DNA of 63,334 nt, filler included, from Basidiobolus ranarum (lineage: Eukaryota), in NCBI GenBank assembly GCA_040143965.1. It is 12 parts of 12 records of this genome, joined end to end, with 100 filler letters (N's around TTAATTAATTAA, not from the genome) between each part and the next. Parts side by side here need not be neighbours in the genome. Positions count along the whole stretch, not along the records: positions 31,758 to 36,942 come from JASJQH010001677.1; 11 more parts are not named here. One strand, 5' to 3'. Shown here piece after piece: positions 36,181 through 36,866 of this stretch. Below the pieces are notes generated by a model. The model was not told the origin of the DNA. It saw nothing but the letters and a program-made list of their open reading frames with translations, and did no database searches. The position numbers and the translations under genes are program-made. Numbering within the stretch: the first letter of the stretch is position 1; each line of letters begins with the position of its first letter.

Positions 36181-36866
36181 ATGGCCGCCCAAAAAAGCCC
36201 CACTTACGATCATTTGATCAAACTTCTCTTGATTGGCGACTCTGGTTAGTGGTCGAGTATTCCTTACAAGCTATTTATTTTTAGTAGAGTCTCTTTTTTT
36301 AGAGAAAGTCCACTTTTATATATACTTGAAACGAATAAGGTGTAACTCTTTCGAGAAGATGACTCTAAACTTTTTCTGTTCGATTTAGGTGTTGGAAAGA
36401 GTTGTTTATTGTTACGTTTCTGTGATGATTCCTTCACACCTTCTTTTATTACTACCATCGGAATTGATTTCAAAATCCGTACCATCGATCTAGATGGTAA
36501 ACGGATCAAATTGCAAATCTGGGATACAGCTGGTCAGGAAAGGTTCCGTACCATCACTACTGGTAAGTTCGTTTTACAGTGAAATTGGAATAGATTTAAA
36601 TAACTCATGAAATATTATTTTTTGTAGCCTATTATCGAGGTGCCATGGGTATCATCGTAGTGTTTGATGTTACCGATGAACGTTCGTTCAACAGTATCCT
36701 TTACCTTCTTATGGTTTAACTTCCCTTTTTTTCATAGTAGAGCGTGTATATTTCTTGACTCTTCTTCACAGATGTTCGTAACTGGATCAAGAATGTTGAA
36801 CAGCATGCTAATGAGGGTGTATCTAAAATTTTGATTGGAAACAAATGTGATATTGAAGATAAAAAG
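36181..36866 (+). CDS. SEC4: Rab8/Sec4/Ypt2-type GTPase, 3'-partial; exons 36181..36244, 36389..36562, 36628..36693, 36772..36866
   Basis: [60 protein letters not shown] and GNKCD. Not shown in the ORF track because it is split by introns. Confidence 0.95.
36694..36771 (+). other. Candidate U12-type (minor) GT-AG intron
   Basis: 5' site GTATCCTTT; branch-point-like TTTCTTGAC at 36751..36759 with its A 13 nt before the end of the 3' CAG; splicing restores SFNNVRNW. Confidence 0.8.

Follow-up and report, generated by a model that had tools for sequence, protein, structure and literature searches.

A probable U12-type intron in a Rab8/Sec4-type GTPase gene of Basidiobolus ranarum

Minor introns described for Basidiobolus and for Rab genes

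Published work already identifies Basidiobolus as the group of fungi with the most minor (U12-type) introns, the catalogued species being Basidiobolus meristosporus. In the portions of the two relevant articles drawn on here, 249 minor introns (0.554%, a density unsurpassed in fungi) were reported for this species by Larue and Roy (2023, PMC10639083), and 237 minor introns together with 140 minor-like and 70 hybrid introns are given in Table S4 of Olthof et al. (2024, PMC11347168). Ascomycota and Basidiomycota were described by Larue and Roy (2023) as having no convincing minor introns, and the two articles, in those same portions, concur that both phyla are without minor introns or minor snRNAs. 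The preliminary description of the DNA studied here had stated that Dikarya lack the minor spliceosome and that some early-diverging fungi retain it, which agrees with both sources. Basidiobolus ranarum, the species from which the DNA derives, belongs to Basidiobolomycota, outside Dikarya.

Regarding the machinery for removal of such introns, only U11 (two genes) and U6atac (one gene) pass the Rfam threshold for B. meristosporus in Table S7 of Olthof et al. (2024, PMC11347168). The table also has a 'putative' block with the four values 2, 1, 1 and 1 for this species, which are read here as U11, U12, U4atac and U6atac, the headings not being displayed in the available form of the table. A putative divergent U4atac, detected at a lowered threshold, is additionally described in the available main text of that article. 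Examination of the 63-kb window (the whole stretch of B. ranarum DNA that was analysed, 63,334 nucleotides) with Rfam, at the gathering threshold and at E<=1, identified no snRNA; the sole match, mir-183 at E = 0.22, was taken as chance. It is from the sister species B. meristosporus that we infer the probable presence of U11/U12 machinery in B. ranarum.

Minor introns are also described for genes of the Rab system in vertebrates, namely RAB6A, RAB6B, RABL2A/B and RABGGTA (Olthof et al. 2024, Table S6, in the part available). These share with the gene of the present study the occurrence of a minor intron, but belong to other Rab subfamilies. No RAB8, RAB10 or RAB13 symbol was found in the available part of the supplement of that article (PMC11347168), and the Ensembl identifiers taken for human RAB8A, RAB8B, RAB10 and RAB13 are absent from the corresponding part of its human minor-intron orthology table. 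If these identifiers are right, no known human minor intron corresponds to the intron described below. A search of the literature, judged by listings, returned no paper treating a minor intron in Rab8/Sec4, the two subjects being mentioned together only in reviews on unrelated topics.

The B. meristosporus catalogues are the closest described system: they cover introns of this kind in the same genus, and the orthologous gene is present in that species (protein ORX88460.1; 133 residues identical). They differ in their coverage, which is of B. meristosporus, with no mention of B. ranarum in the portions drawn on here. Taken alone, the third intron of the gene described below is one more well-formed minor intron in a genus known to be rich in them, and as such is of little weight. 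The only new element is the presence of major-type ascomycete introns at the identical position, which is a known kind of pattern.

The gene and the boundaries of its third intron

The window consists of twelve contigs of 5,175-5,197 bases, arranged in descending length and joined by linkers in which TTAATTAATTAA is flanked by 44 N on each side (the first two being at 5198-5297 and 10493-10592); adjacent parts are not genomic neighbours. The gene lies on the + strand of the seventh part (31758-36942; JASJQH010001677.1), close to the 3' end of that part. Exon 1 (36181..36244, 64 nt) extends from the start codon to GDS-G and lies within the joined translation identical to the public protein P0022. 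It is followed by intron 1 (36245..36388, 144 nt), a U2-type intron of phase 1 with the termini GTTAGT...TAG, and by exon 2 (36389..36562), which encodes the segment from the P-loop to switch II and was matched to positions 10-65 of the Pfam Ras profile (E = 1.1e-22). Intron 2 (36563..36627, 65 nt) is likewise U2-type and of phase 1, with the termini GTAAGT...TAG. Exon 3 (36628..36693; Ras positions 68-88, E = 1.1e-4) and exon 4 (36772..36866; Ras positions 90-120, E = 1.7e-6) are separated by intron 3 (36694..36771, 78 nt), a GT-AG intron of phase 1 that splits an Asn codon as A/AT and is assigned here to the U12 type. Only the 5' portion of intron 4 (36867..36942, phase 0) is contained in the contig (5185 nt), off which it runs, and the rest of the gene beyond the start of this intron, including the C-terminal tail, is outside the window.

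The matches of exons 2, 3 and 4 to Pfam Ras (PF00071) each exceed the cut-off of 21.6 bits, and the product of exon 2 was found to be 93-98% identical to proteins named Rab-8A, Ypt2 or SEC4 in their sources. On the basis of the Ras profile and these closest named relatives the gene is classed as one for a Rab8/Sec4/Ypt2-type GTPase, in keeping with the identity first proposed for it.

The boundaries of intron 3 could be fixed independently of splice motifs. The Ras profile runs on across the junction 36693^36772 with neither gap nor overlap, positions 68-88 being encoded before it, position 89 by the split codon and positions 90-120 after it. The translation of the four exons (133 aa) is identical to P0022, a public protein annotated as 'GTP-binding protein, partial [Basidiobolus ranarum]', and therefore the public gene model already splices at 36693^36772. 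Direct reading of the sequence, together with the continuity of the profile and the identity to the public protein, thus upholds the earlier placement of an intron at 36694-36771, as the third of the gene, with this junction.

A different possibility is that the segment is not spliced at 36693^36772, either with other sites being used or with the gene being a dead paralogue for which the public model is merely predicted. This possibility draws on the truncation of the gene by the contig end and on the existence of several close Basidiobolus paralogues (P0023, P0107, P0024, P0091 and P0121). However, the Ras profile is continuous over exactly this junction, and the same 133 residues form the first 133 of the B. 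meristosporus protein P0121, an identity that argues for constraint. Exons 1-4 are moreover open. Retention of intron 3 results in an in-frame stop 9 codons past the last full codon of exon 3, and among alternative GT/AG pairs (the sequence being read by eye) none restores the conserved residues. Use of other sites, or a dead paralogue, is accordingly judged to be most improbable.

Splice signals of intron 3 and their chance expectation

Intron 3 starts with GTATCCTTT (36694..36702), which matches the U12-type 5' splice site consensus RTATCCTTT at 9/9 positions and the U1-type consensus CAG/GTAAGT at 3/9. Against the latter consensus, the other three donors of the gene score 7/9 (intron 1, CTG/GTTAGT), 8/9 (intron 2, CTG/GTAAGT) and 7/9 (intron 4, AAG/GTAAGG). 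The donor of intron 3 has C at both +5 and +6, positions at which introns 1 and 2 carry G and T and intron 4 carries G twice. The exon before this donor ends in CA, not AG. The intron has the termini GT...AG and a 3' end of CAG.

A U12-type branch-point motif, TTTCTTGAC, is located at 36751..36759, with the putative branch A at 36758. It differs from TTCCTTRAC by a single mismatch, a T for C at motif position 3 (8/9 match), and the distance from A36758 to the last base of the intron is 13 nt. The U12 branch motif (TTCCTTRAC or TCCTTRAY) is expected approximately 10-15 nt from the 3' splice site, and T in place of the first C would still permit a U-G wobble with U12 snRNA. The preliminary description had reported an exact U12 donor, a branch motif with one mismatch whose A lies 13 nt from the 3' end, and U2-type donors elsewhere; the first two of these statements were reproduced for intron 3, and the third holds for the other three introns of the gene.

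Compared with its donor, the 3' half of intron 3 is less informative. Nine of the ten bases between the branch motif and the AG are pyrimidines, and the TTGAC of the intron is also compatible with the loose U2 branch consensus yUnAy. As this half does not discriminate between the two intron types, the case for U12-type splicing rests mainly on the 5' splice site. Phase is in weak agreement with it: minor introns show a bias against phase 0 (as stated in the portions of the literature available here) and intron 3 is of phase 1, as are introns 1 and 2.

These features bear on whether intron 3 could belong to the 'minor-like' or 'hybrid' introns as Olthof et al. (2024) use these terms, with the look of a U12-type intron but removed by the major spliceosome in a U2-dependent manner. 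In the available part of that article (PMC11347168), two cytosines of the branch motif are linked to recruitment of the minor spliceosome in weaker introns, and TTTCTTGAC is without one of these two. The imperfect branch motif, the compatibility of TTGAC with the U2 branch consensus and the pyrimidine-rich stretch before the AG would all suit removal by the major spliceosome, as would the 140 minor-like and 70 hybrid introns listed beside 237 minor introns in B. meristosporus (Table S4, as available). Against it stand a donor with 3/9 matches to the U1-type consensus and 9/9 to the U12-type, with C at +5/+6, and the exon end CA; the same part of Olthof et al. (2024, PMC11347168) reports that AG at -2/-1 of the exon is favourable to the major spliceosome. 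The hundreds of minor introns and the minor snRNA genes reported for the lineage, in the parts of the two sources available, also weigh against U2-dependent removal, which we regard as improbable.

The frequency of the motifs in the window was examined. The donor 8-mer RTATCCTT by itself is not rare in the window, where it matched 11 times against an expectation of 6.1, a count reached in 10 of 100 shuffles. The full GTATCCTTT occurs after 2 of 6453 GT dinucleotides (window, both strands). For the branch motif with no more than one mismatch the rate in the window is 3.5e-4 per position, corresponding to approximately 2e-3 over the six positions that place the branch A 10-15 nt from the intron end. 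For an intron whose ends are fixed, the joint chance of donor and branch motif is thus approximately 6e-7. The rate used for the branch motif is inflated, and hence conservative, because five of the seven exact matches in the window sit in one dispersed repeat.

Given the two motifs, the boundaries fixed independently of them, the low chance expectation and the minor introns and snRNAs of B. meristosporus, intron 3 is in all likelihood a genuine GT-AG intron of the U12 type that would be removed by the minor spliceosome, a reading made from sequence. Under this reading, and following the known pathway of the minor spliceosome, the U11/U12 di-snRNP would recognise the 5' splice site (+4 to +9, TCCTTT) together with the branch motif TTTCTTGAC, after which U11 would give way to U6atac at this splice site. 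As the bulged nucleotide, A36758 would then attack the 5' splice site with the formation of a lariat, and joining of the exons at 36693^36772 would restore the Asn codon in a conserved segment that lies between switch II and the NKxD box.

A second U12-type intron was sought in the window by checking all 26 RTATCCT sites (both strands) for a downstream branch motif and translating the flanks of the best two. One candidate, of 84 nt at 53244-53327 on the - strand, starts with GTATCCTTA and has ATCCTTGAC 13 nt before AAG; it was found to have no convincing coding context and is probably a chance occurrence. The other, at 4558 (ATATCCTA ... TTCCTTGAC), was rejected since its branch motif comes from the dispersed repeat.

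This repeat is approximately 336 bases in length and gave nine blastn matches with 74-86% identity to the query copy, on four of the twelve parts, five of them clustered on part 1. The copies on part 1 are located at 3156-3477(-), 3760-4095(+), 4614-4957(+), 4964-5057(+) and 5059-5197(-), with the others at 28540-28883(-), 42543-42882(+), 50791-51114(+) and 51271-51440(-). The five exact matches noted above stem from this repeat, in which an exact U12-like branch motif happens to stand before TAC. No tRNA or Rfam match to it was found.

The position of intron 3 in relatives

Metagenome contigs were scanned with the public protein, and 80 loci were kept, in all of which (80/80) a single alignment spans residues 95-110. 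An insertion directly after residue 101 was identified in five of the 80 (L070, L071, L072, L075 and L080) and in none of the remaining 75, which are mostly 1-2 kb contigs collinear with the protein that may be transcripts and so give little information on intron presence. No genomic relative from an early-diverging fungus was found among the 80 loci. The comparison of intron position across Rab orthologues proposed in the preliminary description yielded five loci that share both the codon and the phase of intron 3.

The five are Sec4/Ypt2/SrgA-type loci of Pezizomycotina kind. Judged by its C-terminal exon, L070 has its best named relatives in ascomycete genera, with Psora crenata (Lecanoromycetes, Pezizomycotina) as the top named match, and the only exceptions recognised among the named matches listed are two plant-labelled records. 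In these loci, as in the B. ranarum gene, the codon split is that of the Asn next to RSF-N/D/Q, on its downstream side, and the intron comes behind the first base of this codon. Identity to the B. ranarum gene is 7-9 of 10 residues upstream of the intron and 6 of 10 downstream, and the flanks of all five introns thus satisfy the rule for orthologous introns of 40% identity over 10 residues (Larue and Roy 2023, PMC10639083, in the part available). The introns themselves differ from intron 3, as they have the donors GTGAGT or GTACGT, with 3-4/9 matches to the U12 donor, and branch sites of the CTAAC, CTGAC or CTAAT type. They are 48-69 nt in length and are of the major type, which is the type to be expected in Dikarya. 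Their occurrence at the same position is a further point in favour of U2-dependent removal of intron 3, to be set beside its donor and exon end, which argue the opposite.

With intron 3 taken as U12-type, the shared position raises the direction in which the type changed. According to Larue and Roy (2023, PMC10639083, in the part available), the conversion of introns is assumed to go from minor to major with hardly any exception, and therefore an old minor intron converted in Dikarya is the simplest reading. According to this reading an ancestral fungal minor intron was kept in Basidiobolus and turned into a major-type intron when Dikarya lost the minor spliceosome, an account to which we give about an even chance. 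The base before the intron is A in all six genes, being fixed by the Asn codon; a major-type donor is poorly served by this context, which would agree weakly with the minor-to-major direction.

The reverse direction, in which an old major-type intron became minor-type in the Basidiobolus lineage, was considered because major-type introns of Pezizomycotina occupy the same position and because the human RAB8-group genes are without known minor introns. This direction of change is regarded as next to forbidden, and we think it unlikely. Larue and Roy (2023, PMC10639083, in the part available) reconstructed a low ancestral density of minor introns for Zoopagomycota, and if a change from major to minor were true it would help to explain the many minor introns of Basidiobolus despite this low density. 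Parallel gain of an intron at this codon in both groups is also possible.

The same codon with a minor-type intron in Basidiobolus versus a major-type intron in ascomycetes provides an easily aligned test case for change of intron type. Such a case bears on how introns switched type as most fungi lost the minor spliceosome.

Further observations were made on relatives of the gene. A relative with 83% identity on a 21.9-kb metagenome contig (L073:1069-1765) lacks an intron where intron 3 lies in the B. ranarum gene, and its alignment breaks after GDSG, the position of intron 1 in that gene. In P0108, a public model of 182 residues from Ambispora gerdemannii, the sequence passes from ...RTITT directly to EQHA..., without an equivalent of exon 3 and of the start of exon 4; this could be a failure of gene prediction around an unusual intron in a glomeromycete. 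The full-length Rab8-type paralogues of Basidiobolus, P0023, P0091 and P0107, have the C-termini CTGCMN, CSGCVGSK and CSGCMSGK, respectively. In the Pezizomycotina relatives the last two residues are CC, and by comparison the predicted placement of the prenylation cysteines in Basidiobolus appears unusual.
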